Shown here piece after piece: positions 7,357-27,140 of a DNA stretch of 64,000 nt. The position numbers were made by a program, and so were the translations under genes. The notes below the pieces were generated by a model. It saw nothing but the letters and a program-made list of their open reading frames with translations. It had not been told where the DNA came from and did not search any database. Position 1 is the stretch's first letter. Each line of letters begins with the position of its first letter. The stretch spans positions 44,316-108,315 of the forward strand of contig MGTX01000006.1 in assembly GCA_001799675.1 (NCBI GenBank), in the 5' to 3' direction. Origin of the DNA: Elusimicrobia bacterium GWA2_66_18 (GTDB taxonomy: Bacteria > Elusimicrobiota > Elusimicrobia > UBA1565 > UBA9628).

Positions 7357-7364
<8 letters not shown>

Positions 7365-7794: not shown

Positions 7795-9032
7795 CGACGT
7801 TCCTCCAGGCCCTCGAGCCAGTGTCCCATCTTCTCCTTCTTGGCGCGCAGGTAGCGCGCCGCGTGCTTCGGCGCGGGGACCTGCAGGGGCACGCGCTCGA
7901 CGACCTTGAGCCCGTAGCCCTCGATGCCGACGATCTTGCGGGGGTTGTTGGTCAGGATGCGGAAGGAGGTCAGGCCTTGGTCGGCCAGAATCTGCGCGCC
8001 GATGCCGTACTCGCGCAGGTCGGGCTTGAGGCCCAGCTTCAGGTTCGCCTCGACCGTGTCGAGGCCCTTGTCCTGGAGGGCGTAGGCGCGGATCTTGTCG
8101 ATGAGGCCGATGTCTCGCCCTTCCTGGTTGAGGTAGACCAGCACGCCCTTGCCCGCCGCCGCGATCTGCTTGAGCGCGGCCTCCAGCTGGCGGCCGCAGT
8201 CGCACTTCTCCGAGAAGAGGGCGTCGCCCGTCACGCAGGAGGAGTGCACGCGCACGAGCGCGCTCTTCCGCCTCGCCACGTCGCCCATGACCAGGGCGAG
8301 GTGGACCTTGCCGGTGAGGGTCTCCTCGTAGACGCGGATGATGAAGTCCCCGTACTTGGTGGGCAGGCGCGCGCTCGCCCTGCGCGTCACGAGGCGGTCC
8401 TTGCGGCGGCGGTGCTCGATGAGGTCGGCGATGGTGATGATGCGCAGGCCGTGCTTGCGGGCGAAGCGCGCGAGTTCCCGCGTGCGCGCCATGGTCCCGT
8501 CGGCGTTGAGGATCTCGCAGATGACGCCGGCGGGGGTGAGCCCCGCCAGGCGCGCCAGGTCCACGGCGGCCTCGGTGTGCCCGGCGCGGACCAGGACGCC
8601 GCCCTCCTTGGCCCGCAGGGGGAAGACGTGGCCGGGACGCACGAGGTCCTCGGGGCGGGAGCGGGGGTGGATGAGGGCCGCGATGGTGGCCGCGCGGTCC
8701 TTGGCGGAGATGCCCGTGGTGGTGCCCCTCTTGGCGTCCACGGAGACGGAAAAGGCGGTGTCGCGGCCGGGCCCGGGGCCATGCGGCTGGGTCGCGTCCA
8801 CCATGGGGTGGAGCCGGAGAGCGTCCAGGCGCGGCGCGGGCAGGGGAACGCAGATCAGGCCCCGGGCGTGGACGGCCATGAAGTTGACGGCCTTCACGCC
8901 GCACTTCTCGGCGGCGATGACGATGTCGCCTTCGTTCTCCCGATCCGGGTCGTCGACGACCACCACCATGCGTCCTTTGCGGACGTCGGCGACGGCGTCC
9001 TCGATGCGGTCGAATCCCTTGGCGGGCTTCAT
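7791..9032 (-). CDS. ribBA: bifunctional 3,4-dihydroxy-2-butanone-4-phosphate synthase / GTP cyclohydrolase II RibBA
   Basis: Internal start MKPAKGFDRIEDAVADV...; DHBP synthase motifs (RENEGDIV, GHTEA) then GTP cyclohydrolase II motifs (CDCG, zinc Cys triad). Confidence 0.92.
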   Translation of the reverse strand: MKPAKGFDRIEDAVADVRKGRMVVVVDDPDRENEGDIVIAAEKCGVKAVNFMAVHARGLICVPLPAPRLDALRLHPMVDATQPHGPGPGRDTAFSVSVDAKRGTTTGISAKDRAATIAALIHPRSRPEDLVRPGHVFPLRAKEGGVLVRAGHTEAAVDLARLAGLTPAGVICEILNADGTMARTRELARFARKHGLRIITIADLIEHRRRKDRLVTRRASARLPTKYGDFIIRVYEETLTGKVHLALVMGDVARRKSALVRVHSSCVTGDALFSEKCDCGRQLEAALKQIAAAGKGVLVYLNQEGRDIGLIDKIRAYALQDKGLDTVEANLKLGLKPDLREYGIGAQILADQGLTSFRILTNNPRKIVGIEGYGLKVVERVPLQVPAPKHAARYLRAKKEKMGHWLEGLEERR

Positions 9033-9616
9033 CTCTTGGTCCTCAGGGCGGCGACGGCGGCCCGGGCGTAGCGGGCCAAGGGGTCCGCCTCCAGATTGAC
9101 GCGATCTCCCGGGCGGCGGCATCCCAGCGTGGTGTTCTTGAGGGTGTGAGGCACCAGCATCACCTCGAACCAGGCCGGCCGCGCGGCCGTGACGGTGAGG
9201 CTGGTCCCGTCGATGGCAATGGAGCCTTTCCGCGCGATCAAGCCGCGCAGGGCTTTGGGCCGTTCCACCCGCAGACGCCGGAAGCCTTCGGCCCAGGTCT
9301 CGTGGACGAGGACCTTCGCGGCCGCGTCCACGTGGCCGGTCACGAAATGTCCGCCCACTTCCGATCCCAATCGCAAGGATGGTTCCATGTTCACCGCTTG
9401 GCCGGTTTTGAGTTCTCCCAGATTCGTCCGGGCCCAAGTGTCCGGCCCGACGTCGAAGCGATGTGTCCCGTTCTTCGTGGCCACGACCGTCAGACAACAG
9501 CCGTTGACCGCGATGGACGCTCCGATCTTCGGCTGGGTGATCTTCGCGCGGATGGCGAGGGTCGTCGCGGTCCGCTTCCCGACGGTTCCCATGACTTCGA
9601 TGATGCCGCTGAACAT
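9029..9616 (-). CDS. ribE: riboflavin synthase alpha subunit RibE
   Basis: MFSGIIEVMGTV... two lumazine-binding repeats (NGCCLTV / DGTSLTV). Confidence 0.88.
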   Translation of the reverse strand: MFSGIIEVMGTVGKRTATTLAIRAKITQPKIGASIAVNGCCLTVVATKNGTHRFDVGPDTWARTNLGELKTGQAVNMEPSLRLGSEVGGHFVTGHVDAAAKVLVHETWAEGFRRLRVERPKALRGLIARKGSIAIDGTSLTVTAARPAWFEVMLVPHTLKNTTLGCRRPGDRVNLEADPLARYARAAVAALRTKR

Positions 9617-10604
9617 CAAAGAACTCCTTGAATGAGCCAGTCGCCGCCGAGACGGGAGACCCTCGGGTCCTTCAGGCGTGGCGCGCGGTTGGGGTCGTTC
9701 GTGCCCGAGAGCAGTTTCGGCGCGAGGAACACCCGCGCCTCGTCCACCAATCCCGCGCGGAGGAAGGCCGCGTGGACGGTCGGGCCGCCTTCGACGAGGA
9801 GCGTGCCCACTCCGCGGCGGCCGAGGTCCCGGAGCATGGCGCGCAGGTCCATGGGTCGGCGCGCGCGGTAGACCAGCGCCGGCGCCGGGCCCTGGAAGAC
9901 GCGGGCGCGGGGAGGCAGGGCTCGGCGCCCGGCCAGCACGACGCGCAGGGGGTCCGGCCCCGCACCGTGGGCGGTGAGCGCGGGGTCGTCGGCGCGCACG
10001 GTCCCGGCGCCGACGAGGATGGCGTCGCACTCGGCGCGCATCGCGTGGACGGACGCGCGGGCCTTGGCTCCGGTGACCCAGCGCGAGCGGCCCGAGGCGG
10101 CGGCGGCCTTGCCGTCCAGGGAGAGGGCGGTTTTCATAACGACCCAGGGGCGACGGCGGCGCATCAGGGAGAAGAAGCCTCGGTTGAGCTTCTCGGTTTC
10201 CGCGCCAAGGTCCACGACTTCGGCCTTGGCGTCCGCGCGTCGGAGGATGGTCAGGCCGCGGCCCGTCACGGCCCGGTTCGGGTCCCGCGCGGCGCAGACG
10301 ACGCGGCGCACGCCGGCCGCCGCCAGGGCTTCGGCGCAGGACGGCGTCTTCTTGCCCTTGAAGGGGGCGCAGGGCTCCATCGTGACATAGGCCGTAGCGC
10401 CCTGGGCGAGGGAACCGGCTTGAGCGAGGGCCAGGGCTTCGGCGTGAGGGCCGCCGAACCGGCGGTGCGCGGCTTGCGCGATCACGCGTCCGTTCTTGAC
10501 CAACACGCAGCCTACGCGGGGGTTGGGACTGACGTCGCGCGGAGCCACGCGCCGTGCAAGCGCGAGGGCGCGACGCAGGAAGCGCAGGTCGGACGCGCGG
10601 CTCA
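9616..10604 (-). CDS. ribD: bifunctional diaminohydroxyphosphoribosylaminopyrimidine deaminase / 5-amino-6-(5-phosphoribosylamino)uracil reductase RibD
   Basis: Internal start MSRASDLRFLRRALALA...; CMP/dCMP deaminase Zn motif (HAEALAL...MEPCAPFKGK) then RibD C-terminal reductase domain; N-terminal 150 codons of ORF 9616..11058 judged artefact. Confidence 0.9.
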
Positions 10605-11615
10605 TGGCCGGACCACCGTTTTGGCGATCGATTGATCGGCGTTGGCGGCGAAGAAGGCGGGGATGTCCGCGAGTCTTACCTCGCCTTTGACGAGCAATTC
10701 GGTCTTGACCTTGCCCTCGGACAGGAGCCGTACGGCTTCCTTGAAGTGGCGCGGATTGTGATGGAACACGCCGTGGAGGGTGATCTGCTTGTAATGGAGG
10801 CGATGGACGTCGAACGCGACGACGGTCCCATGGGCGCAGCCGCCGAACAGGCAGACCTTGCCGCCGTCGCGAACGATTGCCGCCGCCTGGAGATAGATCT
10901 CCGGCTTTCCCACGGCTTCGAAGACATGGTCGGGTCCGCGCCCGTCGGCCCAAGCTCTCACTCCCTGCTCGGCATCGAAGGCCGCCTCGGCGCCGGCGGA
11001 TTGCGCCGCCTCGAGAGGTCCCTTCGAGCGGCCCAGCACGGCGACGCGCGCGCCGCACGCGCGCAGGGCGTGGACCAGCAGGAGGCTCATGGGGCCCGCG
11101 CCGATGATGAGCGCGGTCTCGCCGGGGCGCACGGCGTTTATCTCGGCGGCGTGGATGGCGCAGGCGAAGGGCTCGGCAAGAGCGCCGACCTCGAAGGGGA
11201 CCGACGCGGCCAGTGAGTGGAGGTTGTGGCGGACGATGTGCGCGGGGATGATATCGTAATCGGAGTAGGCTCCGTTATGGAGCTTTAGATTCGGACAAAG
11301 ATGGTTCTGGCCGTTCGCGCACCAGAAGCAGTCATCCATCGGGGCGGAGTTGGCGACCACGACGCGGTCTCCCTCCCTCGCCGCCGTCACGCCCCGGCCG
11401 ACGCAGACCACGGTCCCCGCCAGTTCATGGCCGAAGGACGACGGATAATCGCCCAGAAGGACGCGATGACCCTGGCGGTAGGCCTTGAAGTCGGTGCCGC
11501 AGGTAAGGGCCGCGCCCATCTTCACGACGACCTCGCCCGCGCCGGGCGCGGAGACGGGAGACTCTTCGAGGCGTATGTCGCGCGGGGCGTGGAAGATGAT
11601 CCGGCGGTTTATCAT
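10602..11615 (-). CDS. Zn-dependent medium-chain alcohol/polyol dehydrogenase (MDR family)
   Basis: Last ~338 codons of 1318-aa ORF, starting MINRRIIFHAPRDIRLEESPV...; GHE..G motif (GHELAGTV), structural Zn Cys cluster (CFWCANGQNHLC), Rossmann GAGPMS. Confidence 0.8.
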   Translation of the reverse strand: MINRRIIFHAPRDIRLEESPVSAPGAGEVVVKMGAALTCGTDFKAYRQGHRVLLGDYPSSFGHELAGTVVCVGRGVTAAREGDRVVVANSAPMDDCFWCANGQNHLCPNLKLHNGAYSDYDIIPAHIVRHNLHSLAASVPFEVGALAEPFACAIHAAEINAVRPGETALIIGAGPMSLLLVHALRACGARVAVLGRSKGPLEAAQSAGAEAAFDAEQGVRAWADGRGPDHVFEAVGKPEIYLQAAAIVRDGGKVCLFGGCAHGTVVAFDVHRLHYKQITLHGVFHHNPRHFKEAVRLLSEGKVKTELLVKGEVRLADIPAFFAANADQSIAKTVVRP

Positions 11616-12610
11616 GGCGTCAGCACCGCCTTCAGGATGCGCCGCGACTTCACGGCGTGAACGGCGTCGTCGAAGGCCGAGAGAGGAAATCGTTCGGGGT
11701 TGAGAGATAAAGGACCGAACTTCCCCGAGGCGATAAGCTCGAAGGCTTCCCTCAGGTCGACGAGGGAGGGGGAATAGGAGGCAATGACGGACAGTTCCCG
11801 GTGATAGACCTGATTTAAGTCGAGCTTCATCAAGGGGTCGGGATGAAAGGATGTGAACACGTTGAGGGCGCCTCCGTCCCGGAGCCAGCCCAGGGACGCT
11901 GCGACCAGGGCGGGCGTGCCCGCTGAGAAGATGACGGCGTCGAAGCCCCGGTTCTCGCTGGCGTTGCGGCCCGCCTGCGCGAACGCTTCCAGGTCGGTGA
12001 TTCCCGTCCCCCATCGCCCGAACGTCGCGGCGCGCGAGGCGTCCAAGTCCAAGCCCACGGGGCGGGCGCCGCGCAGCTTCAGCAGTTGCCCCGTCATCTG
12101 CCCCATCGCCCCCAGACCCACGACGGCGATCACGTCGCCCGGCCCGGCTTCCAGCCTCTTGACGTTGCGCAGCACGCAGGCCAGGGGTTCGGTCTGCGAG
12201 GCGGCGACGGGGTCCACGCCTTCCGGGACGCGGAAGGCGGCGCGGCGGGCGTGGAGGGCGGGCACGCGCACGAACTCGGCGAAGCCCCCGGGGGCGATGT
12301 TGGTGGCCTTGAACTGGCGGCACATGGACTCCTGCCCCTTGCGGCAATAGTGGCAGGTCAGGCAGGGGACGTGGTGGGAAACGACGACGCGCTCGCCGAC
12401 GCGGAAGGGGGCGTCCGCGTCGGCCTCGGCGACCAGACCGCAGAGCTCGTGGCCCAGCACCGCGTCTTGGGCGCGCGTGTCGAGCTTCATGATATCGGTG
12501 CCGCAGAGCCCGCAGACTTCGACCTTCAGCAGGAACTCGCCCGCGCCGATCCCGGGGACCGGGACCTCGCAGAGACGCGCGGCACCGTCGCGTGCCAGGA
12601 TGGCCTTCAT
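11612..12610 (-). CDS. second Zn-dependent alcohol dehydrogenase (MDR family), tandem to the first
   Basis: ORF 11612..12655; likely start MKAILARDGAARL (ATG ~12610) because the upstream ATG at 12655 would overlap divergent speA start; CGLCGTD, GHE, CxxCxxC motifs, GLGAMG Rossmann. Confidence 0.75.
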   Translation of the reverse strand: MKAILARDGAARLCEVPVPGIGAGEFLLKVEVCGLCGTDIMKLDTRAQDAVLGHELCGLVAEADADAPFRVGERVVVSHHVPCLTCHYCRKGQESMCRQFKATNIAPGGFAEFVRVPALHARRAAFRVPEGVDPVAASQTEPLACVLRNVKRLEAGPGDVIAVVGLGAMGQMTGQLLKLRGARPVGLDLDASRAATFGRWGTGITDLEAFAQAGRNASENRGFDAVIFSAGTPALVAASLGWLRDGGALNVFTSFHPDPLMKLDLNQVYHRELSVIASYSPSLVDLREAFELIASGKFGPLSLNPERFPLSAFDDAVHAVKSRRILKAVLTP

Positions 12611-12653
12611 AAAGAACTGCCAGGATGATAGAATATCTTTTACAATCTTCGCC
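12611..12653. promoter_or_regulatory. short divergent intergenic region between ADH-rib operon (minus) and speA (plus); AT-richer, contains TAGAAT-like -10 element
   Basis: Sequence aaagaactgccaggatgatagaatatcttttacaatcttcgcc is markedly AT-richer than surroundings. Confidence 0.3.
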
Positions 12654-14640
<1,987 letters not shown>

Positions 14641-14651
<11 letters not shown>

Positions 14652-16188
14652 CCGTCCCGCCGTTCGGGCGCTGCTCGCCCTCTCCGGCGCCGCCCTGCTC
14701 GTCGGCTGGATCTGGAGTCGCGCAGCTCCGTGCGGGGGATGGGAAAACTCCGTCTTTGGCTTCCGTCTTTGGAACGAGTCCGATCCGGGCGGATACTACG
14801 TCCCCAGCGCCCACGAGCTCGGCCGCTGGCGCGGACGTCTGCTCTACCCCGGCCACCCCGGGCTGACGCTGCAGGTCCTGCTGCGCGCCCTGCAGGAAAC
14901 CTACTTCCGCCTGCGAGCTCCGGCGGGCGCGTCCCTCGGTTTCACCGCCTTCACCGCGAAGAACATCGTGAGCGTATTCCTCCTTTCGAAGATGATGATC
15001 GCGTCGCTGCATGTCCTCTCTTTCTGGCTCTTCTTGCCGTTCGCGCGACGGCTTCTGTCCAGCGAGTTCGCATCGCTCCTCGCGGTCCTCGGGTACGCGA
15101 CCTCTCTTCCCGTCGTCTACTATCTCACTCGCGTCTCGGTGGAGCCGCTGATGGTCGTCTTCTTTCTCGCGGCGTTCCTCTGCGTCTGGCGCTGCGGCGA
15201 GGACTTGGAGTGCGGCCGACCGAGGAGGGCGATCCTCGACGGCGCGCTGTCCGGCGCGGCGGCGGCCGGAGCGCTCGCCACGAAGTTCCACCTGCTCTGG
15301 CCGCTTCCCGCGGTCTGCCTGCTGCACCTGTGGTGGGGCGATGGAGCGCGGCGGCAGCGGGGCCGCGGGCCGGCGGTCATCGGATTCATCGCGGGGGCGT
15401 CGGCGTCCTTCGCCTGGTATTGCCGGATCCTCGATTGGAGGGACTTTTTCGCCTATTGGGATGTGGGCGGCGCGGGAGGGCTCACCGTTCTCGGGGGCCT
15501 CGCGGCCCTCGTCCGCGGCGCGGCGCGCCTCCCGTTGGGGGAGTTGCTTCCGGCGCGGACGAGGTCGGGGCTCTTCCTCTTTTGCGAGTGGCCGCTGCTG
15601 GCGGCCGCGGCGTACGGCCTGTTCCTGGAGGTCCGGCGCCCCGACGCTCCCTGGGGCCGCTGGTTCTGGTTGGCGCTGGCCGGGAGCTACACCGTCTTGA
15701 TATGGGCTTACCGCTGCTTTGCGGTGAGCGGGGATTTTCACGGCTTCCATTATCTCTTCGTCTTCATCCTGCTGGCGTCCGTCTTTTTCGGCCGCGCCTG
15801 CGACGCCTTCATTGCGCGCCTGCCCTTCACGGCGCGTTGGCAGCGCGCCGCTGCGGCCGCGCTCTTCGTGGCCGTAAGCCACGCCATGGTCCTGGCAGCC
15901 GCCCGGGACGCTTACGCCTACGACGCCGCGCAATACGCCCGCATCCGGGCCTTCGGCTCGGCCCTGGCCGCGGCGCGGGCAGGGGAGCGGGTCGGCCTCG
16001 TCGGGAGAGTGGGCGCGCCCGTGTCCGTCCTTCTGGGCCTCGGCGTCCTGCGCGATTCGCAGCCGAGGCGCTCCGCTCTCATCGACGCGGTCGACGGCTC
16101 GTTCATTGCCGGAAACGCCGGCTCCGGTCCCACCGTGGAGATTTTCGAGGCCGGGGGGATGAAGTCGGCCCGCCGTCGGGGAGAGTAG
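14641..16188 (+). CDS. hypothetical polytopic membrane protein (possibly glycosyltransferase-like)
   Basis: 515 aa, >10 hydrophobic helices; start overlaps speA stop; no confident family assignment. Confidence 0.5.
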
Positions 16189-16281
16189 TTGCCGAGCCAT
16201 GCAGCGCGCGGATGCCCGGAGATTGCCTCAGAGCCTGGGACTTTTGCCGCGGTTTGCTAGGACTTTCGCCTCTCTCGCTCG

Positions 16282-17610
16282 GTGCGAGACTTGGTTATCA
16301 TAATGATGATGAAAATCCGACGAGGTCTCGCCGCCGTGCTTCTTGGGATTGCCGTTCCGGCATCGGCCGTGGTGGAAGCGCGTCCGGCGGCGGGCGTTCG
16401 GCCGGCGCCGGCGCTTGTCGCGTCGGCGCCGACGTTCGCGCTGCGCGCCGCCGCCGTCGCGCTGCCGGCGCCGGAGCCTCTTCTGAGCGCGCCGCCTGCC
16501 GAGGCATCGTTGCCTCCGGTCCAGGTGCGCGCGGCGGCGCTTTCCGGAGCGTTGGCCGAGTTCGCCCGTACGGATCTCCAGGAGGCGTCGTCGGTCGAAG
16601 TCCGCGACGCGGGCGACATCCTGATGCTGCGCGCGCTGGGCGCGGACGCGCTCGGCGCGGCGTCCGTCCCGGCCGCGCCCTCCGACTCCCCGGCGCCGCC
16701 GCTCGCCTTGCCGCAGCGGGTCTCGCGGCCCGCCGAGCATCGAATCTATCTGCTGTCGAAGCCTCTGCACGAGAAGATGCACCTCGGGCCGCTGTCGATT
16801 GCTTTTCACTTGACGTGGAGTATTTCCTTGGAAGTGGCCCAGGCGTTGTTCATTTGGAAGGAGACGGGCTCGCTGATAGCGCCGGCGACCACGTTCCTGC
16901 TCGGGCTGCCGTGGGCCCCGGCGTCGATCATGGGGCGCACTTCGGTGGACCTGGGGCTGCGCTACTGGAGACGCAAGCTCGCGGTGCTGCGCGAGCTCGC
17001 GCGGACGCCGGGCGTGGAGCGCCTGCGGGTGCTGACGACCGGAGACGTCGAGTTCCTCGGTCCGATCGCGCGGCGCAAGGACAACACGGGGTTGATCTTC
17101 GTCGAGGCTTCCTCAGAGCTTCCCCGGGAGTTCGGCCGTTTCGGCACGCCGATTCACATCGCGGATGTCGACACCCATCACGTGCGCATGACGCTCGTCG
17201 GCGCCCAGCAGCGCGCGGAGACGGACTGGACGCGGTCTCTCAGCGGGATGCTCGAAGGATGGCCGATCCCGCAGGAAACCGCGGCCGCGTGGAGGGAGGA
17301 ACACAAGCGTCTGAGATCCGCCGGCGCGAAAACGGCGCACTTCCGCGTGGAGGCGGTCTTGGTCGGTCCCGACGGGGAATCGCGCCCGCTCGGCGCGATC
17401 ATCCACGGTCCCGCGGTCAAGACCTTGATCGGCCTCGGGATATTGGATCGAGTGCTCTCGGGGCTCGGCCGGGGGCGGCTGTCCCGCCGGATCTCGATTT
17501 CGGATACCATCATCGAACGGCCGGGAGATTTAGTCGAATCCGGCTGGCAGGCGTCGCTTCGGCGCGCGTGGCGCCGGATTTCGGGGCGGCTGATCGTCGT
17601 CAAACCCTGA
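16282..17610 (+). CDS. hypothetical exported protein with Ala/Pro-rich N-terminal region
   Basis: Signal-like MMMKIRRGLAAVLLGIAVPASAVV; unknown ~300-aa C-terminal domain. Confidence 0.5.
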   Translation: MRDLVIIMMMKIRRGLAAVLLGIAVPASAVVEARPAAGVRPAPALVASAPTFALRAAAVALPAPEPLLSAPPAEASLPPVQVRAAALSGALAEFARTDLQEASSVEVRDAGDILMLRALGADALGAASVPAAPSDSPAPPLALPQRVSRPAEHRIYLLSKPLHEKMHLGPLSIAFHLTWSISLEVAQALFIWKETGSLIAPATTFLLGLPWAPASIMGRTSVDLGLRYWRRKLAVLRELARTPGVERLRVLTTGDVEFLGPIARRKDNTGLIFVEASSELPREFGRFGTPIHIADVDTHHVRMTLVGAQQRAETDWTRSLSGMLEGWPIPQETAAAWREEHKRLRSAGAKTAHFRVEAVLVGPDGESRPLGAIIHGPAVKTLIGLGILDRVLSGLGRGRLSRRISISDTIIERPGDLVESGWQASLRRAWRRISGRLIVVKP

Positions 17611-17620
17611 CCGAGTCTCC

Positions 17621-19987
17621 TTGATAAAGTTCTGGCTCTGCCTGGCGCTGGCCGTCTCGACCTCCGCCGCTTCCGCGGTTTCGGCGGCGCTCAACGCTCC
17701 GGCGCGGGGCGCGACGGCGCCCGGCGCCCTGCACGCCTCGCCGGTGTCGTCTTGGACGCCCGTCTTCGACGCTCCCCTGTCGAACGCCGCCTCGCTGCTT
17801 GTCGATACCAGCTTTTCTCCGATCTTGCGGGCCCTGGAACTGAAGGGTTGGACGCCTCGGGGCTATGCCGCCGCCGCCGAGGCCGTGAAGACCTCGGCCA
17901 TCGCCGAGGCCGTCGCCGCCGTCCGCGCGCAAGCCGCCGAGGAGGCCGCCCGCGCGTTGGCCGAGATCGCCCAAGCCGATCCCGCTTCGCCGGAGTATCC
18001 CATCCTCGCGGCCCGCCTCGCTCAGCTGGCCGGGCCGTTTTCCGGCTTCGTGCCCGACGAGCACCGCGCCGCCGTGCTGCTGGCCGCGCGCGCCGCCTCC
18101 GCCCGGATGGGGGCCGCAAAGAGCGAGAAGCTGGCGCGCTTAATCGAGACGATGCAGGAGAATCTAAGCCGCCCCGGGGAGCTTTTAGAGACGGCCGTCG
18201 AAGCATTCGTCGCCGACCTGGCCGACCCGCCGGCGCGCCTCATGACGCCGGGCGTGGCCAGGCTGCGCGAGGCCGGCGACCCCGTCCTCAAGGAGGCGCC
18301 GCCCCCGCCGTCGTCGGGCCTTGTTTTCGGCTCTAAGGTGGGTCTGCTGAAGACGCGTCAGGCCGCCGTCCGCCTCGTCGCGCGCGGCCTCTATCGTCCG
18401 CTGCTCGACGCCTTCCGCCTCGTGATGACCCGCGCCGGCGAGATCTGCCGCAAGTACATCTCCGGACGGGAGCAGGACAAGCATAATTTCCGCTGGAGCG
18501 TGCTGGAGTTCCTTCACCGGAAGGGCGACTTCCGCGGCTCCTTCGGCCATCCCGTCTATCAGGGCCAGCCCGAGATCATGTCGCCCGTGATCTTCAACGA
18601 GCCGAACCTGGAATCCCTGCGGACCCAGAAGCACGACCTGCGCGGCGCCCAGATATCCCCCATGCTCGGCATCTCGGGCATGAGCTTCCCCCAGCTTTCC
18701 GCTCAGTCGCACCTTTCCTTGCTCTACATCCATCTCAAGCTCGCCAAGGAGCAGGGAGCGCGCATCCTCTACAACACCGGCGAAGGCGGTCCGGGCCTCC
18801 TGCTCGGCCTGATGGAGGGCGACGCGGCCAAGATGAAAGCCGGCATCGTCGCTTGGAACACGGCCAACGGCCAGTTCCAGGCGGGCAGCTGGAACGAGGC
18901 CAGGATCGTCGCGCTCATCGACGTCTTGATGGCGCAGCGCCGGGCGCTCTTCGCGGAATTCTCCGCGGAGGACTTGGCGCGCGCCCAGATCGTGGCGCAG
19001 TTCGGTTCCGCGCTCAACGGCATTCGCCGCGACGACGCGGAGGGGCGCGTCGACTTCGACAAGCTGCGCCGCGTGGCGGCCAACCCGCATGTGGCCATGG
19101 TGCAGTACAAGCTCAAGCAGGCCGCCAAGCGCGGCGCCAAGATCGATCCGCGCAAAGTCAACGACATCGTGGCGGCATGGCGCGAGATCCCGCGCAACAG
19201 ATCTTTCAGGTCCCCCGAGCGCATCGCCGACATGCAGAGTTACGGGGAGATCGCCGCGCTGATCAAGGCCACCCGCTCCGTCTCCGCGAAGCCCGTCTCG
19301 CTCAAGTTCGGCATCGGCGACGCCGCGGACCTTCTGGATTTCATGCGCTTCCTGCGCGACGCCGACGCCCTGCCCGATCACCTCCAGATCGACGGCCGGG
19401 GCGACGATTTCTCTCCCGGCTCGGGCAACGCCCCGCCCGGCGCCAACACCAGCCTGCCCGCCAACGAAGCGGTCATCGTCATCGACGCCGTCCTTAAGAA
19501 GCTGGGCGCGCGCGACCGCGTCTTCATCGACGCCGGCGGCGATGTCATGCTTGCCGCCGAGGCCGTGGAGAGGCTGGTCCTGGGCGCCGACGGCGTCTGC
19601 GGCGCGCGCACCTGGATGGCGATGGGCTTGGGATGCTCGAAGGTGAAGGCCTGCGCCGACGGCAACTGCCCCTACGGCATCGCCTCCAGGAACGGCTCTC
19701 TCGTCGGCTTGGGCTTGGACCCGCAAGTCCTCGGCCCGAAGGGCTACGCGGCCGCCGCCAACTGGCAGAAGTCCTTCGTCCAGGCGCTCGTGGAAGCGGG
19801 GCTCACCGACTGGCGCAAGGCCCGCGCCGTGCTGGGCCTGGGCACGGGCTCCGCCGCGATCCGGATCAAGGACGGCGCCAAGACCGTCCCGCTCGACCGC
19901 TACTACTCGCCGCAATACGTGGCCGACCTTCTGCGCGGCGCTCTCACGCGGCAGGAAGTCGACCGCCTCGTCTTCGGCCGCCGCTGA
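17621..19987 (+). CDS. signal-peptide-bearing protein with C-terminal glutamate-synthase-type FMN-binding / 3Fe-4S domain (GltS_FMN family)
   Basis: N-terminus MIKFWLCLALAVSTSAASAVSAA; C-terminal half has YNTGEGGP, ...FSPGSGNAPPGANTSLP..., DAGGDVMLAAEAVERLVLGADGV and Cx5Cx4C (GCSKVKACADGNCPYGIA), matching the GltB FMN-domain / 3Fe-4S signature. Confidence 0.65.
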   Translation: MIKFWLCLALAVSTSAASAVSAALNAPARGATAPGALHASPVSSWTPVFDAPLSNAASLLVDTSFSPILRALELKGWTPRGYAAAAEAVKTSAIAEAVAAVRAQAAEEAARALAEIAQADPASPEYPILAARLAQLAGPFSGFVPDEHRAAVLLAARAASARMGAAKSEKLARLIETMQENLSRPGELLETAVEAFVADLADPPARLMTPGVARLREAGDPVLKEAPPPPSSGLVFGSKVGLLKTRQAAVRLVARGLYRPLLDAFRLVMTRAGEICRKYISGREQDKHNFRWSVLEFLHRKGDFRGSFGHPVYQGQPEIMSPVIFNEPNLESLRTQKHDLRGAQISPMLGISGMSFPQLSAQSHLSLLYIHLKLAKEQGARILYNTGEGGPGLLLGLMEGDAAKMKAGIVAWNTANGQFQAGSWNEARIVALIDVLMAQRRALFAEFSAEDLARAQIVAQFGSALNGIRRDDAEGRVDFDKLRRVAANPHVAMVQYKLKQAAKRGAKIDPRKVNDIVAAWREIPRNRSFRSPERIADMQSYGEIAALIKATRSVSAKPVSLKFGIGDAADLLDFMRFLRDADALPDHLQIDGRGDDFSPGSGNAPPGANTSLPANEAVIVIDAVLKKLGARDRVFIDAGGDVMLAAEAVERLVLGADGVCGARTWMAMGLGCSKVKACADGNCPYGIASRNGSLVGLGLDPQVLGPKGYAAAANWQKSFVQALVEAGLTDWRKARAVLGLGTGSAAIRIKDGAKTVPLDRYYSPQYVADLLRGALTRQEVDRLVFGRR

Positions 19988-19993
19988 GGTGAA

Positions 19994-20407
19994 ATGTTGA
20001 GGACTCCACTGCTCTGGATTGCCGCCATGCTCTTCCTGTGGGCGCCGTTCATGCTGCTCACGGGCGGCATCGAGGCCGCCCAGCGCCGCTACGTGCTGTG
20101 GAAGGGGACCCCGGCCGTGGGCGTGGTCACGGGCGTGTCCGCCGCCCGGAGCGGCCTGCGCGTGGACTTCTCATACCGGACGGCCGATGGCCGACAGAAC
20201 GACGGCTTCTCTCTCGTGGGCGGGAACAGTTTCGGCGCCGCGTTCAAGGGCCGCCCGGTGCTGATCCACTTCCTGCCCGCGCCGGACCCGCGGCTGGCCT
20301 CATCGGCCGCGCTCGACGACGACCTGGGCTTCGAGCGCTCCATCCTCATCCAGGCGGGATGTCTGATCGCCGCGGCCCTGCTCTTGCGACTGATGCGCCG
20401 CGCCTAG
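19994..20407 (+). CDS. small two-TM membrane protein (DUF3592-like topology)
   Basis: 137 aa; N-terminal and C-terminal hydrophobic helices flanking a soluble segment. Confidence 0.45.
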   Translation: MLRTPLLWIAAMLFLWAPFMLLTGGIEAAQRRYVLWKGTPAVGVVTGVSAARSGLRVDFSYRTADGRQNDGFSLVGGNSFGAAFKGRPVLIHFLPAPDPRLASSAALDDDLGFERSILIQAGCLIAAALLLRLMRRA

Positions 20408-21048
20408 GGGCTCTTGTCCCCCGGTTCCCCGCGCGGGGTGTTGTTCCAAAGGGACAGGACATAGTCGGCGAATTCCTGGGCCTCGCCCGGGGACTTGAAC
20501 TCCCGCGCGCGCATGAGGTGCGCCAGGACCTGGGAGGGGTGGCTCGCCAGCAGGATCATCTCGTTGACCGTGGCGGTCTCCTCGAAGCGGGGGTCCTCGA
20601 ACTGCTCGAGATTTTTGCGGGCGGCCTCATTGGCGGGCGCCAGGCCGAGGGCGCGCCGCCAGGAGAGGACGGCCTGGATCGTGTCTTTTCTCTCGAAATG
20701 GAGGTTGCCCCAGTCGAGATGGAGTTCGGAGAGCTCGCCCGTCTGCTCGGGCTGGTAGCCCGCTTCGGCCCGCCGCAGGCAGGCCTCGGCATCCCCGAGC
20801 CTGCCCGCGTCCAGCAGTTCCATCGCCTGGAGATGGTTGGCCCGCGCATGGGAGGGATCCGCCGCCAGTATCTTTTCGAGCTCCCGCTTCGCCTGCGCGT
20901 CTTTCTTGAGCATCCTGCAGACGCTGACATAGAGGCAGCCGTCCCGGGCGTCCCGCTCGCGCGGCGCGAGCAGCTCGAAAGCCTTCTCGAACTCGCCTTC
21001 GAGGGCGAACCGCTCGGCCGCCTCGAAGCCGCCGCCGTCCGCGCTCAT
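20404..21048 (-). CDS. TPR-repeat protein, translationally coupled to the giant activase-like gene
   Basis: 214 aa with TPR-like helical repeats; ATG overlaps stop of 21045..27140 gene (ATGA). Confidence 0.6.
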   Translation of the reverse strand: MSADGGGFEAAERFALEGEFEKAFELLAPRERDARDGCLYVSVCRMLKKDAQAKRELEKILAADPSHARANHLQAMELLDAGRLGDAEACLRRAEAGYQPEQTGELSELHLDWGNLHFERKDTIQAVLSWRRALGLAPANEAARKNLEQFEDPRFEETATVNEMILLASHPSQVLAHLMRAREFKSPGEAQEFADYVLSLWNNTPRGEPGDKSP

Positions 21049-24000
21049 CGGGTCCCCTTCGCCTGGCTCTGGGGGTCCATGTACTCCTTGGCCTGATAGA
21101 CGAGGGCCTCGGTGCGGGTCCGGACGTTCTTGAGGTTGCGCGATTCGCTCATGGACACGACCAAAGTCGGGAAATCGCGCTTATCGGGGGGCAGCCCGTT
21201 CTTCATCTTCTGGATCAGGCCCTCGTAGATGGTGTTGGGCAGGCACCCCGCGGGGCCGATCATGATCGCTCCGTCGGCGCCGTGCAGCGCGTACTCCTCC
21301 ATGGCTCCCAAGGTCAGGGGGCCCTCGCCGGACGAGAATTGACCCGTATGCTTGACTCCGTGCCGGATGACGTTCTTGACGTCACGGCCGCGCCCGAACT
21401 CCTTGCGCTGGATCCCCCGGCGCAGCACGCGGTAGATCTTGTCGTCGTATAATCTCAGGAAGCCCTTGCCCGCGAAATAGCCGAGCAGGGACTTGAGTCC
21501 CTTGAACCTGAAGAAATCGCGCCAGCCCATGGTCTCCAGGGGAGAGCCGAATTCGAGGCCGTTGTAGACGAACTCGTTGAAGGGCGCCAGGAACACCTCG
21601 GCGCCCTGGGCCTCGAGTTGGCGGATGATATCGCCGTTGGCGTAGTCGTTCATCCTCAGATAGATCTCCCCCACGAGGCCGATGAGGGGTTTGCGCTGGG
21701 TGCGGTCCTGCGGGACGCCGCGTATCTCCGCGACGAAGCGCTCGAGCGTGGTCAGGAGCTTCCTCTCGTTGCCCATCGCCTCCGCGGCCTCGCGCAGGTA
21801 TTTTTGGTAGACGAGCTCCGTCAGCTTGACCTTGCGCAAATAGTCGGGCGCGGAGGCGTTGATCTGATCCATGTAGTCGCCCAGCACCTGCCTGCCTCCC
21901 GCGAGGATTTCCAGCTTCTTGCGGGCCGAATCCTCCGTGTGGATCTCGTAGGGCCTGTTTTCAAGCAGGAGCTGGTGCAGATAGTCGCCGATGAGAAAGG
22001 ACTTCCAGATGTTGACGGTCAACCGCAAGGACGGGACGAAATGGTTGGGCACGGCGGGGGACTTGGAGCGCCCGGCGAGGTTGGCCACGCGCAAGCCGGG
22101 GAAGCCCGCCTCGCGGAGGCTCGTCTCCAAGGCGCTGGTGTATTGGCTGAAGCGGCAGCTCCCATTGCTCTTGTAGAACATGACCGCGATGTCCCCGGGC
22201 TTGGTCCCGGCCTTGATCTGCTCGCGGATGCCGACGATGGCCTCTCCCATGAGCACGGGGTAGGGCAGGCACTCCTTGCCGTTGGAGTATTTCCTGCCCT
22301 CATCGAGCGCGGCGTCCGTGGCGGGCTTGAAGGCCTCGGCGTCGATTCCCGCGGCCCGCAGCGCCCCTGCCAGAACGACGATGTGGTCCGACATCCTGGG
22401 GATGAAGGTCTTCTTGCCCTTGAGCTCCTCCAGGGTGAGGAATTCCATGGGCTTGGGCGCGGGCCGGCCCGAGGCGGCGAACGCCTCGGCGGTCTCCGCC
22501 TTCTCGATAGTCCTCTGGGCCGCCTCGTTGGCGAGCTTGATGGAGGTGATGTAGGCGTCGATGCGGGTCTTGAAGCCGGCGGCGCTCGTGTGCTCGTCGA
22601 TCTCGAGAACGAGCAGGGGCTTGCCCGCGGCGCGACAGCGCGCCTCCAGCTTCTTGATGATGTAGGCGTCCGGGCCGCAGCGGAAGGGCGTGATGTAGAC
22701 GGGATAGAGGTCGGGGTCGTCGGCGACGATCTCGGCCGCCTGGAGGATCTTGCCCTGGTAGTACCAGGTGTCATCGGCCGCCATGTGGGGGTCGCGGCGA
22801 CCCTCCTCCAGGGCGAGGAAGTCCATGGGCAGGGCCTGCCAGCCGTGCTTGCGCACCTCTCGGGGCACGCCCATGTTCAGCCCGCCGTCGAGGCTGCTGT
22901 AGGGGCGGGAAAGGAAGACGACGCCCTTTTGCCCCTGCTCTCGCATCTCGGACAGGGCCTTGGCGCCCTCCGCGCGCTGAGCCTTGCGGAAGTCCTCGGC
23001 CGCCCGCTCGGCCGCGTCGAAGGCGCGCCGCACCTCGCCGCGGGGCAGCCCGATCCCCGCCCCGAAGCGTTCGAACTGCTCGAGGATTTCCTCGCGCGGC
23101 ACGCTCAGGTCGAGTTCGGGGCTCAAGAACCGCTTGCCGTGCTCCTCAGGATTGAAGACGCCCTTGAGGGCGTAGGGGGCGCCCGTGACCTGGGGGCAGG
23201 GCGAGGCGTGCTTGGAGGCGGGGTTGAACGGCTTGAGCTCCAGGAGGACGGGCAGGAAGATGTCCGTCACCCCCTCCTTCTGCAGAAGGTCGGCCACCAT
23301 GCCGTACAGCATCTTCATCGGCAGGCAGGGGTCGATGTTGAGGTGCTGCTTGGCCAGATCCAGGATATGCTTGTCGCTCGTGCGCGAGGCCACGACCTCG
23401 AAGCCCGCGGCGTTGAAGAAGGCGTGCCAGAAGGGGAAGTTCTCCCAGAAGTTGAGGCCCGCGGGAAAGCCGATGACGCGCCCGTCCCGGGTCTTGATGC
23501 CGGCGGCGGGGACGGCGGAAGGAGCGGGCCGTCCTCCGGCCGCGAGAGTCTTGGCCCAGAGCGTGAAACGCTCTCGGAGGGAGGCCTTCGCGGACGGCGG
23601 CGCGGCCTCGCCCGCGAGATAGTCCTTGGTCAGCAGCTCGTGCCTCCGATGCAGCAGGTCCGGGAGATTATCGGAAAGGCGCTTGAGCTCCTTGGGGATG
23701 CTCTTGTCATGCAGGTCGCAGTTCGGCCCGTAGACCAGCTTCTTGCCTTCCGGGGTCACCAGGTACATGAGCTGGCATTGGTTGGCGCAGGCCGCGCAGC
23801 GCTTGCCCTTGACGACCTCCGTCGGGATGAAGCCCGCCGAAAGCCCGCGGAACTTCGTGGCGACGAGCTTGGCCGCCTCGGGCAGGGAAGCGTCGGCCAG
23901 TTTGTTCTCGTAGCGAGTCTTGGCGATGAGGGCCATCCCGATGGCGCCCATGACCTCCGCGTGCTCCGGGACTTCGACCGGTTTGCCCGTGAGCGCCTCG

Positions 24001-27000
24001 AGGGCGGCGACCACGGCCTTGTTGTTGGAGACCCCGCCCTGGAACACGATCTTCCGTCCCACGGCTTTGCCGCCCTTGACCTTGTTGAGATAGTTCTTGG
24101 CGATGGAGTAGGCAAGCCCCGCCGAGATATCCTCGGGGGTGTAGCCCTCGGCCTGGGCCTGGACGATGCGGGACTTCATGAAGACGGTGCAGACCTCGCC
24201 CAAGTCCGCGGGCGACATGGCCCGCAGGGCGGAATCGCCGAGTTCCTCCACCATGACGCCGAGGACCCGGTCGGCGGCCTCGTCGAAGAAGGAGCCCGTG
24301 CCCGCGGCGCAGGCCTTGTTCATCTCGAAATCCTCGATCATGCCTTTCATCACGCGCATGAATTTCGAGTCCTGCCCCCCGATCTCGATGATGGTGTCGG
24401 CGTCCGGATGCAGCCGCCCCACGGCCGTGGCGTGGGCGTTGATCTCGTCGACGACCGCGTCGGCCCCGACCATGGCGCCCATGGCCTCGCGTCCGGAGCC
24501 GGTGACCCCGACGTGGAGGATGCGGATGCGGGAGCCCAGCTTGTCGCGGATATCGTGGATGCCCCTTTCCATGACCGCGAAGGGCTGGCCCTCGGTCCTG
24601 ACGTAATCCTTATGAAGGACCGCCTCGGTCTTGGCGTCGATGAGCACGAACTTGGTCGTGGTGGAGCCGACGTCGAGGCCGAGGAATACGTCACGGACCT
24701 CGCCCTCCTTGAACTGATACGGCGTCCAGGTCTTCTCGAGCCGCCGCGGGTCGCGCAGCCGCAACTGGGGCAGGGCGCTGGTGACCGTGCGGTTGGCGAC
24801 GAAGTCCTTGAGCTTGGCGAGCCCCTCGACGAGGGCACTGCGGTCGAGCATGCGTCCCTCGGCCAGATTCCGGGCCGCGAACATGGCCGCCCCCTGCGCG
24901 ATGCGTATCTCCGGGAAGTCGGGCACGATGAGCCGGGCGGGGTCTATGCCCTTCTTCTGCAGGAGCCTCTTGAAAGCCTCCACCAGGACGCGGTTCTTGG
25001 AGGTCCCGCCCTGGAAGATGATGATGCCGTCGCCGGCCATTCCCCTCTTGACTTCGCCCACCAGATTCATGAGGTAGGTGAGAACGATGGTGTTGTGCAC
25101 CCCCCAGGCAACGAGCTCCTTGGGCAGGTTCTCATGGCGCAGCAGATGGGTGATATCGGTCTTTGCGAAAACCGTGCAGCGGCCCGCGATCTCGGGCGGC
25201 ATCTTGTCCACGGCGGTCCACGCCCCGTCGATCATCGCCAGGAGCTTGTCGAAGCCCAGGCGGGCCACCTGCTCCTCGAGGAAGGTGCCCGTCCCGGCCG
25301 CGCACTCGCCGTTGAGGGCCGTCTTCTTGAGCTTGCCGTCGGCGCCGAGGTGGATGTACTTGGAATCCTCGCCGCCGATTTCGAAGATGTGCGTGTCCTT
25401 ATTGAGATGGCCGTACTGCTCCAAGATGGGGGCGGTCTGGGAGATGACCTCGTTGGTGTAGCGGATGTTGACCTGCCCTTTCTTGCCCTCTGCGCCGTAG
25501 CGCCCTTCGAGCGCCAGGTCGATGTAGCCGGCCAGCTTCTCGGAGACCTTCTGTCCGGCCGATCCGGAAAAGCCGATATTGACGACCTCCTGGTCCTTGA
25601 AGCGCTCCAGGACGGACTCAAGGAGCAGCGCCGACATCTCGTAGACGCGGGCGTGGTGCTTCTGGTAGGTGCCGTGGACGATGTTTCCGGCTTCGTCGAG
25701 GACGAGGGTCTTGGCGGTCGTCGATCCGCACTCCACGGCGATGCGCACCGTGGCGCCCTTGGGAAGGGTGACGGGGTCGCCGAAGCCGGCGAGGCCCTCC
25801 ACCCGGCCGCCCAGCTCGATGACCGGGGCGGCGCGCTTACGCTCCGCCGGCGGGTCGCTCACCGGGGGGGCCGCCGCCGGCGGCGCGGGCTGGGGCTTCT
25901 CCGAGATGAGGGAGGCCGTCGGTTTAATCGGGATGGACGCCGCGGGCGCCGCCGCCGCCCCGTCCGCAAGCAGCCTGCGGCGGCGTCGCGCCAGAAGCTC
26001 CAGGAAGAGGACGGCGCCGAGAGCGCAGAGCACGGCGACGATGAGCGGAAGACCGCGTTCGACGGGGAGCTTTGCCATCGGGACGCTCACCGCCGCGCCG
26101 AGAGCGCCGGCGGCCGCCGGAACGGCCGAGAGGGAGGGGCCGAACGTCCTCTTCTCGTTGACGGCGTCCCTCAGGGATGCCGCGAGGCGCGTGACGCGCG
26201 TATAGAAGGACGGCAGTCCCCTGGTGATGGAGGCCGCGTTAAAGGCGGCCCGGAGTTGAAGGCCTAGGCGGCTCAGAAGGCCGCCGGCCCAGACCGCGGG
26301 CTTGCCGCTTGCGGCCCGCCGGCTCGCGGCCGCCGGATCGATCACGGCGTGAGACGCCTCAGAGACGGACTTCTCCTGGGTGGCGCGCGGGTCCCAGGCC
26401 GTCTGCAGGCTCGAGGCGAGGATCCCGGACGCATCGGCCGGCGACACTCCGGCATCGACGATATTGTCCTCGTGCGTGACGCCGGACAAGACGTCCGCCC
26501 GTTCGATGGGTTTATTGAGGGCGGAGGCCGTCAGCGTCAGGGAGGAGGCGACCTTCCCCTGCCGCGCCTTGCGCGCCGCCACGGCGGCCTTCTCCAAATT
26601 CGGCAGGACCCGCCGCAGGCGCTCGGCGTTCCTCGACGAGAGGAAGACGGCCTTCTCCGACAGGACGTCCCGGGCCCAAGTCAGGGTCCGTTCCAGGTCG
26701 CCGTCGGCCAGGCTTCCAGACTCGAACCGGGCGACGATTCCGTCCACGAAGGCGTTGGACTCGCGCTCCTCGACGCGGGCGGCTTGCGCGAGCATTTCGA
26801 CGCGGCGCTCCTGCCTCGCGCTCAAAAAGGCTTCCGGGCTGAGGGTGGGATGAACGGTCCCGATCCTGAGCGCGAGGCGGCGGATCGCGAAAGGGCGCGC
26901 CGTCAAACCGTCCGGGGAGGCCAGGAGGCTGAGGGAGCCGAGTTTGAGGCCGGAGAGCGCGTCCGGCCCCATTTGCGCGATGGCGGCGGAAATGGCGCCG

Positions 27001-27140
27001 TTCCAGGCCGCCTGGCCGGCCTCCGCGGAGGCCGCCCCGCGCGGACCGGCGAAGCCGCCGCACCTCCCCGCGCAGGGAGCAAGGAGGGCCGCGCTCAGCA
27101 ACGCGGCCGAGAGACATCGTGTCATGGTGCTGGGTATCAT
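21045..27140 (-). CDS. giant (2031 aa) membrane-anchored protein: N-terminal signal peptide + ~360-aa unknown region + TM helix, then two BadF/BadG/BcrA/BcrD (HgdC-type) activase ATPase domains and a large C-terminal hydroxyacyl-CoA-dehydratase-like / DUF2229-like region
   Basis: ATPase 1: VRIAVECGSTTAKTLVLD...IFEIGGEDSKYIHL...NGECAAGTG; ATPase 2: VFLGLDVGSTTTKFVLID...IIEIGGQDSKFMRV...NKACAAGTG; Cys-rich linker CAACANQC...NCDLHD; TM helix LPLIVAVLCALGAVLFLELLARRRRR at aa ~364-385. Confidence 0.75.
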   Translation of the reverse strand: MIPSTMTRCLSAALLSAALLAPCAGRCGGFAGPRGAASAEAGQAAWNGAISAAIAQMGPDALSGLKLGSLSLLASPDGLTARPFAIRRLALRIGTVHPTLSPEAFLSARQERRVEMLAQAARVEERESNAFVDGIVARFESGSLADGDLERTLTWARDVLSEKAVFLSSRNAERLRRVLPNLEKAAVAARKARQGKVASSLTLTASALNKPIERADVLSGVTHEDNIVDAGVSPADASGILASSLQTAWDPRATQEKSVSEASHAVIDPAAASRRAASGKPAVWAGGLLSRLGLQLRAAFNAASITRGLPSFYTRVTRLAASLRDAVNEKRTFGPSLSAVPAAAGALGAAVSVPMAKLPVERGLPLIVAVLCALGAVLFLELLARRRRRLLADGAAAAPAASIPIKPTASLISEKPQPAPPAAAPPVSDPPAERKRAAPVIELGGRVEGLAGFGDPVTLPKGATVRIAVECGSTTAKTLVLDEAGNIVHGTYQKHHARVYEMSALLLESVLERFKDQEVVNIGFSGSAGQKVSEKLAGYIDLALEGRYGAEGKKGQVNIRYTNEVISQTAPILEQYGHLNKDTHIFEIGGEDSKYIHLGADGKLKKTALNGECAAGTGTFLEEQVARLGFDKLLAMIDGAWTAVDKMPPEIAGRCTVFAKTDITHLLRHENLPKELVAWGVHNTIVLTYLMNLVGEVKRGMAGDGIIIFQGGTSKNRVLVEAFKRLLQKKGIDPARLIVPDFPEIRIAQGAAMFAARNLAEGRMLDRSALVEGLAKLKDFVANRTVTSALPQLRLRDPRRLEKTWTPYQFKEGEVRDVFLGLDVGSTTTKFVLIDAKTEAVLHKDYVRTEGQPFAVMERGIHDIRDKLGSRIRILHVGVTGSGREAMGAMVGADAVVDEINAHATAVGRLHPDADTIIEIGGQDSKFMRVMKGMIEDFEMNKACAAGTGSFFDEAADRVLGVMVEELGDSALRAMSPADLGEVCTVFMKSRIVQAQAEGYTPEDISAGLAYSIAKNYLNKVKGGKAVGRKIVFQGGVSNNKAVVAALEALTGKPVEVPEHAEVMGAIGMALIAKTRYENKLADASLPEAAKLVATKFRGLSAGFIPTEVVKGKRCAACANQCQLMYLVTPEGKKLVYGPNCDLHDKSIPKELKRLSDNLPDLLHRRHELLTKDYLAGEAAPPSAKASLRERFTLWAKTLAAGGRPAPSAVPAAGIKTRDGRVIGFPAGLNFWENFPFWHAFFNAAGFEVVASRTSDKHILDLAKQHLNIDPCLPMKMLYGMVADLLQKEGVTDIFLPVLLELKPFNPASKHASPCPQVTGAPYALKGVFNPEEHGKRFLSPELDLSVPREEILEQFERFGAGIGLPRGEVRRAFDAAERAAEDFRKAQRAEGAKALSEMREQGQKGVVFLSRPYSSLDGGLNMGVPREVRKHGWQALPMDFLALEEGRRDPHMAADDTWYYQGKILQAAEIVADDPDLYPVYITPFRCGPDAYIIKKLEARCRAAGKPLLVLEIDEHTSAAGFKTRIDAYITSIKLANEAAQRTIEKAETAEAFAASGRPAPKPMEFLTLEELKGKKTFIPRMSDHIVVLAGALRAAGIDAEAFKPATDAALDEGRKYSNGKECLPYPVLMGEAIVGIREQIKAGTKPGDIAVMFYKSNGSCRFSQYTSALETSLREAGFPGLRVANLAGRSKSPAVPNHFVPSLRLTVNIWKSFLIGDYLHQLLLENRPYEIHTEDSARKKLEILAGGRQVLGDYMDQINASAPDYLRKVKLTELVYQKYLREAAEAMGNERKLLTTLERFVAEIRGVPQDRTQRKPLIGLVGEIYLRMNDYANGDIIRQLEAQGAEVFLAPFNEFVYNGLEFGSPLETMGWRDFFRFKGLKSLLGYFAGKGFLRLYDDKIYRVLRRGIQRKEFGRGRDVKNVIRHGVKHTGQFSSGEGPLTLGAMEEYALHGADGAIMIGPAGCLPNTIYEGLIQKMKNGLPPDKRDFPTLVVSMSESRNLKNVRTRTEALVYQAKEYMDPQSQAKGTR

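Follow-up and report, generated by a model that had tools for sequence, protein, structure and literature searches.

A GltB2-type flavin/iron-sulfur protein with a predicted Sec-type export signal in Elusimicrobia and Bdellovibrionota-like bacteria

The gene analysed here, 17621..19987 on the forward strand, lies in a 64,000-nucleotide stretch of contig MGTX01000006.1 from Elusimicrobia bacterium GWA2_66_18 (contig positions 44,316 to 108,315; hereafter the window). Read from a TTG start with its stop codon included, it encodes a 788-residue protein, identical to database entry P0001, which carries a predicted signal peptide ahead of a GltB2-type flavin mononucleotide (FMN)/iron-sulfur (Fe-S) domain. 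Our analysis points to an oxidoreductase for a carboxylate substrate that would be exported to the periplasm by the Sec pathway and would hold both cofactors there, a reading in which export, cofactor content and substrate are each deduced from sequence comparison and to which we assign a rough probability of 0.4. About 50 full-length homologues (31–64% identity) were found, and they are best described as proteins of a known family, GltB2/PF01645, whose predicted topology is reversed.

Catalytic core and family boundaries

A Pfam scan of the protein returned one domain only, Glu_synthase (PF01645), at residues 341–694 (18641..19702; E=9e-31; bit score 107.8, cut-off 20.4), and the (beta/alpha)8 FMN-binding triosephosphate isomerase (TIM) barrel fold of that family is present. 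Sequence searches of solved structures with phmmer and hmmsearch matched glutamate synthases (GltS) exclusively (7mfm, 1llw and Azospirillum GltB). The presumptive cluster-binding loop, C672-x5-C678-x4-C683-P684 (19634..19672; GCSKVKACADGNCPYGIA), aligned with the 3Fe-4S cysteines of GltS, namely C1137, C1143 and C1148 of Synechocystis ferredoxin-dependent GltS (Fd-GltS; 1llw, alignment numbering) and the equivalent cluster cysteines of B. subtilis GltA (7mfm). Likewise, Q500 and K503 of the motif Q500-A-A-K503 (within KLKQAAK; 19118..19129) and R521 (19181..19183) aligned with Q969, K972 and R992 of the Synechocystis enzyme, residues that line the 2-oxoglutarate/flavin site of GltS; alignment and invariance both identify R521 as the counterpart of the carboxylate-binding R992.

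In an alignment of 60 sequences, comprising family members and distant generic relatives, the three cysteines, P684, Q500, K503, R521 and residues G387-E388-G389 of the GEGG motif (G387-E388-G389-G390; 18779..18790) were invariant, as were the glycines of the GxGxAP and GAD motifs, and the stretch SPGSGNAPP was conserved as well. An earlier note on this DNA, made from the letters alone, had proposed a GltS-type FMN/3Fe-4S domain with an intact ligand triad and had quoted GEGG and GAD as its hallmarks. The PF01645 match, the GltS alignments and the invariance across the 60 sequences bear this out: the Cys triad and the FMN-domain motifs are conserved, and the quoted motifs are real and, being invariant, under selection.

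The protein shares with the GltS alpha subunit and Fd-GltS (1ea0, 1llw, 7mfm) the PF01645 FMN barrel, the 3Fe-4S cysteines and the residues equivalent to Q969, K972 and R992; the GltS proteins differ from it in possessing glutaminase, central and beta-helix domains, in a different loop 4 and in having no signal peptide like that of the family. None of the N-terminal nucleophile (Ntn) glutaminase, central or C-terminal beta-helix domains was found by Pfam in the protein, the alignments to PDB entries span the FMN domain only, and the GltB equivalog model NF008730 (NCBIfam) scored 14.3 bits, below its cut-off of 1047. On these grounds an identity as glutamate synthase itself was ruled out. The residue equivalent to Q978 of Fd-GltS is K507 and the PGEGG loop is shortened, so that the distal substrate pocket, as judged from the alignment, differs from that of GltS. 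The FMN-dependent alpha-hydroxy-acid oxidases and dehydrogenases and type-2 isopentenyl diphosphate isomerase (flavocytochrome b2, lactate and mandelate oxidases, IDI-2) were only 11–17% identical to the protein, lack the Fe-S loop, and are cytoplasmic, peroxisomal or mitochondrial enzymes.

The closest architectural match is to the generic standalone GltB2 proteins (COG0069 type, about 500 residues with an N-terminal transmembrane (TM) anchor; P0052–P0060 and P0075–P0097), with which the catalytic core is shared. Residues 242–765 (18344..19915) aligned end to end with residues 33–494 of the generic proteins (hhalign probability 100, E=5.8e-49), and the GMS, NTGEGG, KxxQxAK, GxGxAP and GAD..AR motifs and the Cx5Cx4CP triad are common to both; the other domains of true GltS (amidotransferase, central and beta-helix) are missing from both groups. 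In the generic proteins the basic residues come after one or two strong TM helices, an arrangement that puts the catalytic domain on the cytoplasmic side; the family studied here has instead a short signal peptide with its charges ahead of the hydrophobic core, RGAKVD in place of PGxGGxLPG after the catalytic Lys (a shortened loop), lineage-specific N-terminal domains, and a helical insertion of about 56 residues after GEGG. This insertion (roughly residues 396–451; 18806..18973), between GEGG and the IVAQFG strand, corresponds to a gap in the generic profile (hhalign), was modelled by AlphaFold2 (AF2) as helices at 402–415 and 424–443, and is present in every family member, including those that have no signal peptide. 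A literature search turned up no functional or topological study of this family or of the generic GltB2 proteins.

The limits of the family were clear when 1.84 billion cluster representatives were searched exhaustively with phmmer: only 26 clusters were recovered at E<=1e-30 and the generic proteins began at about 1e-25, the break in similarity running from 1e-40 to 1e-25. From these searches the family appears to be a small, sharply delimited and undescribed clade of standalone GltB2-type enzymes, nearly all of which share a predicted signal peptide and a modified GltB2 core. A pattern-seeded, tblastn-confirmed scan covering about 185,000 species, each represented by a single genome, yielded 15 loci, nine of them in Elusimicrobia metagenome-assembled genomes (MAGs) and the other six in Bacteriovorax, Halobacteriovorax marinus, Oligoflexia, Bdellovibrionales, a Myxococcota MAG and 'Proteobacteria SG_bin7'. 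The closest named relatives are groundwater Elusimicrobia (about 61% identity).

N-terminal signal and route of export

The predicted Sec-type signal peptide MIKFWLCLALAVSTSAASAVSAAL (residues 1 to about 24; 17621..17692) has the n/h/c layout of such signals. The N-terminus MIKFWLCLALAVSTSAASAVSAALNAP holds one Lys, an uncharged hydrophobic stretch and small-x-small motifs (ASA, VSA) without a twin arginine; on a heuristic reading, MIK is followed by FWLCLALAV and then by STSAASA/VSA/A (slashes mark possible cleavage points), with cleavage by signal peptidase I likely to fall behind ASA (residue 19) or VSA (residue 22). A Sec-type N-terminus lacking twin arginines, as the earlier note had described it, is therefore upheld by the n/h/c layout, the ASA/VSA motifs and the absence of RR. 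A flexible Ala/Pro-rich linker follows (residues 25–44; 17693..17752), modelled as coil with the lowest predicted local distance difference test (pLDDT) values of the AF2 model (54–81). A lipoprotein signal was considered for this protein and rejected, since C7 is preceded by FWL and forms no lipobox.

The same layout recurs across the family: 48 of 56 sequences open with 0–2 basic residues ahead of a hydrophobic core free of charges, and in 33 of these 48 a strict A-x-A motif lies within 20 residues past the core (e.g. ARA/G, ASA/V, ANA/G). It is also seen in members of low guanine-plus-cytosine (GC) content, in which Ala is not abundant (AQA/AE, SFA/NG, ASA/AP, VLA/KE). Two members, P0062 (FAALSC) and the Halobacteriovorax marinus homologue (FILSSC), carry lipoboxes. 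Several entries that seemed to lack a signal proved to be start-codon miscalls, the true N-terminus of P0014 being MRHLLPCAFLLLATLASA/G, and in several homologous loci an in-frame stop 2–3 codons 5' of the ATG establishes that the signal segment is the true N-terminus.

The possibility that the hydrophobic segment is no export signal, and that the protein is cytoplasmic and perhaps peripherally attached to the membrane in the manner of the generic GltB2 proteins, has in its favour that the closest relatives face the cytoplasm, that signal-less family members exist and that the cofactors would then pose no problem. Approximate insertion energies (Hessa 2005 scale, plain sum over 19-residue windows) argue for a different topology: the value was +1.7 kcal/mol for the protein and the family median was +2.75, with 3 of 49 sequences below zero, against a median of -1.2 and 14 of 21 below zero for the generic GltB2 anchors (Mann-Whitney p=7e-7), so the family segment appears too weak for a stable TM helix. 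Charge polarity is also opposite, the basic residues of the family lying ahead of the core and those of the generic single-helix proteins being absent before it and several after it; the other generic layout, with two helices, likewise puts the catalytic domain in the cytoplasm. The stable N-terminal TM anchor with a cytoplasmic catalytic domain that typifies generic GltB2 was thus not found in the protein. Together with the n/h/c signals and small-x-small motifs in 48 of 56 members across phyla, the two lipoboxes and the low-confidence linker between segment and fold, these features make a cytoplasmic location improbable in our estimation.

Between the two options raised by the earlier note, an extracytoplasmic protein and an uncleaved anchor, the former is favoured and the latter disfavoured by the weak insertion energy, the polarity of positive n-region, hydrophobic core and small-x-small motif, and the lipoboxes of the two relatives. 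The family looks like one that has swapped a cytoplasm-facing anchor for an apparent cleavable export signal, and the protein is predicted, with good probability, to be extracytoplasmic.

The route of export bears directly on the cofactors. Cofactor insertion is cytoplasmic, periplasmic Fe-S proteins are regarded as obligately dependent on twin-arginine translocation (Tat), and some flavoproteins are possibly Sec-dependent (PMC10924467); under this doctrine Fe-S insertion occurs only in the cytoplasm, so that extracytoplasmic Fe-S proteins need Tat (PMC10924467, PMC5449189). Under it, the cofactor content of the protein would require loading in the cytoplasm and folded export by Tat, here with a degenerate signal from which the twin arginine has been lost. 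An RR pair does occur in 6 of the 48 signal-bearing members, and a c-region Arg (ARA/G), a known Sec-avoidance feature (PMC10924467), is seen in many Elusimicrobia-type signals. Moreover, a Rieske Fe-S protein in a related Elusimicrobia genome (L001:1706-2269, minus strand) begins MSRGDFLW, with a single Arg where RRxFL is expected; the Tat motifs of the lineage may therefore be atypical, or the clade of that genome may have no Tat.

Against this, RS, RT or RL replace RR in close relatives, the n-regions of near-identical proteins reading MRRLL, MRSLR, MRTRL, MRTLP and MRLPL, and lack of RR conservation among close homologues is a criterion for excluding Tat targeting (PMC10924467). In the protein itself K3 is the only basic residue before the core, no Arg precedes it, and the conserved S/T-R-R-x-F-L-K Tat motif is missing; Bdellovibrionota-type members have Lys-only n-regions with very hydrophobic cores (Kyte-Doolittle values of 3.1–3.7), and two members have lipoboxes. 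A regular-expression search for a TatA-like motif gave no match within the window, which is too small a stretch to be informative. Taking both sides together, we regard folded export by Tat as improbable to about the same degree as retention in the cytoplasm. If the predictions for the protein hold, it would resemble the Tat-exported NapG, NrfC, HybA and Rieske proteins in being a redox protein with an Fe-S cluster beyond the cytoplasmic membrane; in those proteins the twin-arginine signal is conserved and export takes place in the folded state, unlike the present family with its Sec-like or lipoprotein signals and no conserved RR.

A candidate periplasmic oxidoreductase and its cofactors

In the mechanism that we propose, the precursor would cross the inner membrane by Sec and be cleaved around residues 19–24, some members carrying a lipoprotein signal in place of the cleavable Sec-type signal, and the mature protein would fold in the periplasm. 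There FMN would oxidise or reduce, by two electrons, a carboxylate substrate (a 2-oxo, 2-imino or 2-amino acid) held by Q500, K503 and R521, and the Fe-S cluster of the Cys triad would exchange single electrons with a periplasmic partner encoded by a separate gene. The steps of this scheme that we infer are export and cleavage themselves, the occupancy of the FMN and Fe-S sites in the exported protein, the class of substrate and the redox partner.

A rival reading accepts Sec export and dispenses with the cluster, the protein being a periplasmic FMN-only enzyme or binding protein whose three cysteines would either coordinate a different metal or be split between one disulfide and one free thiol. 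It respects the rule of cytoplasmic Fe-S insertion and fits with the possible Sec dependence of some periplasmic flavoproteins (PMC10924467). Across the family the distance between the second and third cysteines is not constant (Cx4C to Cx5-7C), and the mature low-GC (Bdellovibrionota-type) proteins (P0046, P0048–P0050, P0062–P0068, L019 and L020) contain exactly four Cys, the triad and one more, an even number that is compatible with two disulfides. The Elusimicrobia-type members, in contrast, conserve only three, an odd number, and the three Cys, the Pro and the GxGC...CPxGIA loop are invariant across 31–64% identity and in the generic cytoplasmic relatives, which is the pattern expected for a retained cluster site. 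We therefore consider a cluster-less exported protein unlikely, though less so than either the cytoplasmic or the Tat alternative. The extra Cys of the low-GC members, part of a C-x-[DES]-[LMIV] motif, lies 5–20 residues past the predicted cleavage site and is absent from the protein encoded in the window and from the signal-less members; it could be a fourth Fe-S ligand, bind the flavin covalently or pair in a disulfide.

Several observations weigh against the exported FMN/Fe-S oxidoreductase that we favour. An Fe-S enzyme exported by Sec would need a new maturation route, since Fe-S insertion is held to be cytoplasmic. The sub-clade of P0042, P0044 and P0045 is truly without a signal, an in-frame stop lying just upstream of the P0044 ATG, and no signal was seen in the Myxococcota homologue, so the core enzyme can presumably work in the cytoplasm. 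The loop after K503 differs from that of both GltS and generic GltB2, and the substrate is therefore not predictable. Finally, no conserved neighbour pointing to a redox partner was found in 23 homologous loci (8 obtained by exact protein look-up and 15 from the species genomes). Given export, we put the chance that an Fe-S cluster is carried outside the cytoplasm as even, and the more specific proposal, that the clade is exported unfolded via Sec (in some members as lipoproteins) and gains its FMN and its cluster, whether [3Fe-4S] or [4Fe-4S], after leaving the cytoplasm, is advanced tentatively, as somewhat doubtful. As a separate observation, the signal-less P0044 (L024:6001-8226), P0042 and P0045 have a helical C-terminal extension of about 70 residues instead.

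N-terminal domain, gene neighbourhood and significance

The AF2 model of the protein is a single globule (mean pLDDT 92.3, predicted template modelling score 0.92) consisting of an N-terminal helix (residues 2–25), a low-confidence coil (26–44), packed helices from 45 to about 301–340 with pLDDT >90, a beta/alpha barrel at roughly 340–700 and, at the C-terminal end, a helical cap that includes a small sheet. Residues 45–241 (17753..18343) form an all-helical N-terminal domain that is confined to Elusimicrobia-type members. When residues 45–335 were modelled alone the pLDDT was 78, and Foldseek of the N-terminal domain model against the PDB gave no significant fold match (best E=2.4). Comparison of the Elusimicrobia-type N-domains with similar-sized Bdellovibrionota-type N-domains by hhalign detected no homology (probability 0.1), and no conserved Cys or His was present in the helical domain in the family alignment. 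The N-regions of the remaining family members are much shorter. On this evidence the domain, of about 200 residues, appears to be a novel, lineage-specific accessory. The segment following the signal had been described previously as about 300 Ala-rich residues. The composition stands, residues 26–230 containing 25% Ala and 10% Pro; a reading of it as a low-complexity linker does not, as AF2 places a folded helical domain at 45–241 and hhalign assigns residues 242–340 to the conserved GltB2 core. At the opposite end of a relative, P0032 (1008 residues; L015, Elusimicrobia) has a C-terminal extension of about 220 residues with an HVDGG...H pattern, which may be a real fusion or a read-through artefact; a fusion to a 2-oxoglutarate oxygenase-like domain was considered for this extension and dropped, there being no Pfam match.

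Two co-directional genes lie directly upstream (14641..17610, forward strand), encoding a 515-residue polytopic membrane protein (14641–16188) and a 442-residue signal-bearing Ala/Pro-rich protein (16282–17610), both present as the earlier note described them. A further gene (19994–20407, forward strand), starting 7 nt past the stop codon of 17621..19987, encodes a 137-residue protein with hydrophobic N- and C-terminal segments (two TM helices). Together with speA, which lies upstream, these genes are co-directional with short gaps; a promoter/terminator scan found terminators at chance level only, and the two promoter-like sites found were upstream of speA only. The suggestion that the membrane protein, the exported protein and the GltS-FMN protein form a unit was not sustained by comparison with other genomes. 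None of the three flanking proteins matched a Pfam or NCBIfam model, tblastn found none of them in any of the 23 homologous loci, and all-against-all clustering of the flanking open reading frames (ORFs) showed no neighbour shared beyond one close Elusimicrobia sub-clade, in which a cluster of CcsA, HemA and an 850–930-residue protein, and DUF2231, recur. The gene contexts of the homologues otherwise differ completely from one another, and the 17621..19987 gene behaves as a standalone gene. A subtilisin-type Peptidase_S8 gene stands beside the homologue in five loci (L008, L010, L011, L012 and L023; one of them Bdellovibrionales) and was not found in the window.

Riboflavin genes lie 7–10 kb upstream on the other strand (a lumazine synthase domain in ORF 7357–8904 and a RibD deaminase/reductase at 9616–11058, both minus strand); with other genes between, their proximity to a gene for an FMN-domain protein is probably coincidence. 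Two tandem ORFs resembling zinc-type alcohol dehydrogenases by their sequence motifs (10602–12655, minus strand) lie between the riboflavin genes and speA. On the other side, a 2031-residue protein (21045–27140, minus strand) combines two BcrAD_BadFG ATPase regions with DUF2229 (similar to coenzyme A-enzyme activases), preceded by an N-terminal region of about 450 residues that opens with a hydrophobic segment, and a gene for a tetratricopeptide repeat (TPR) protein (20404–21048) lies directly downstream of it with a 4-nt overlap.

If the tentative proposal of unfolded export with cofactor uptake outside the cytoplasm is true, Elusimicrobia and Bdellovibrionota-like predators would possess an unrecognised route of periplasmic Fe-S insertion, and a periplasmic redox reaction of amino acids or 2-oxo acids would feed the respiratory chain. 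The family is a testable candidate for an exception to the Tat/Fe-S rule, as members in two unrelated phyla keep the Fe-S loop and the flavin site behind Sec or lipoprotein signals: a cluster present outside the cell would imply a new maturation route, and its absence would mean that a strictly conserved cluster loop has been repurposed. Experiments look feasible because the genome of one relative is assigned to Halobacteriovorax marinus, a culturable species. The family would be the first indication of GltS-domain chemistry outside the cytoplasm, and it offers a handle on the large, uncharacterised GltB2 family.

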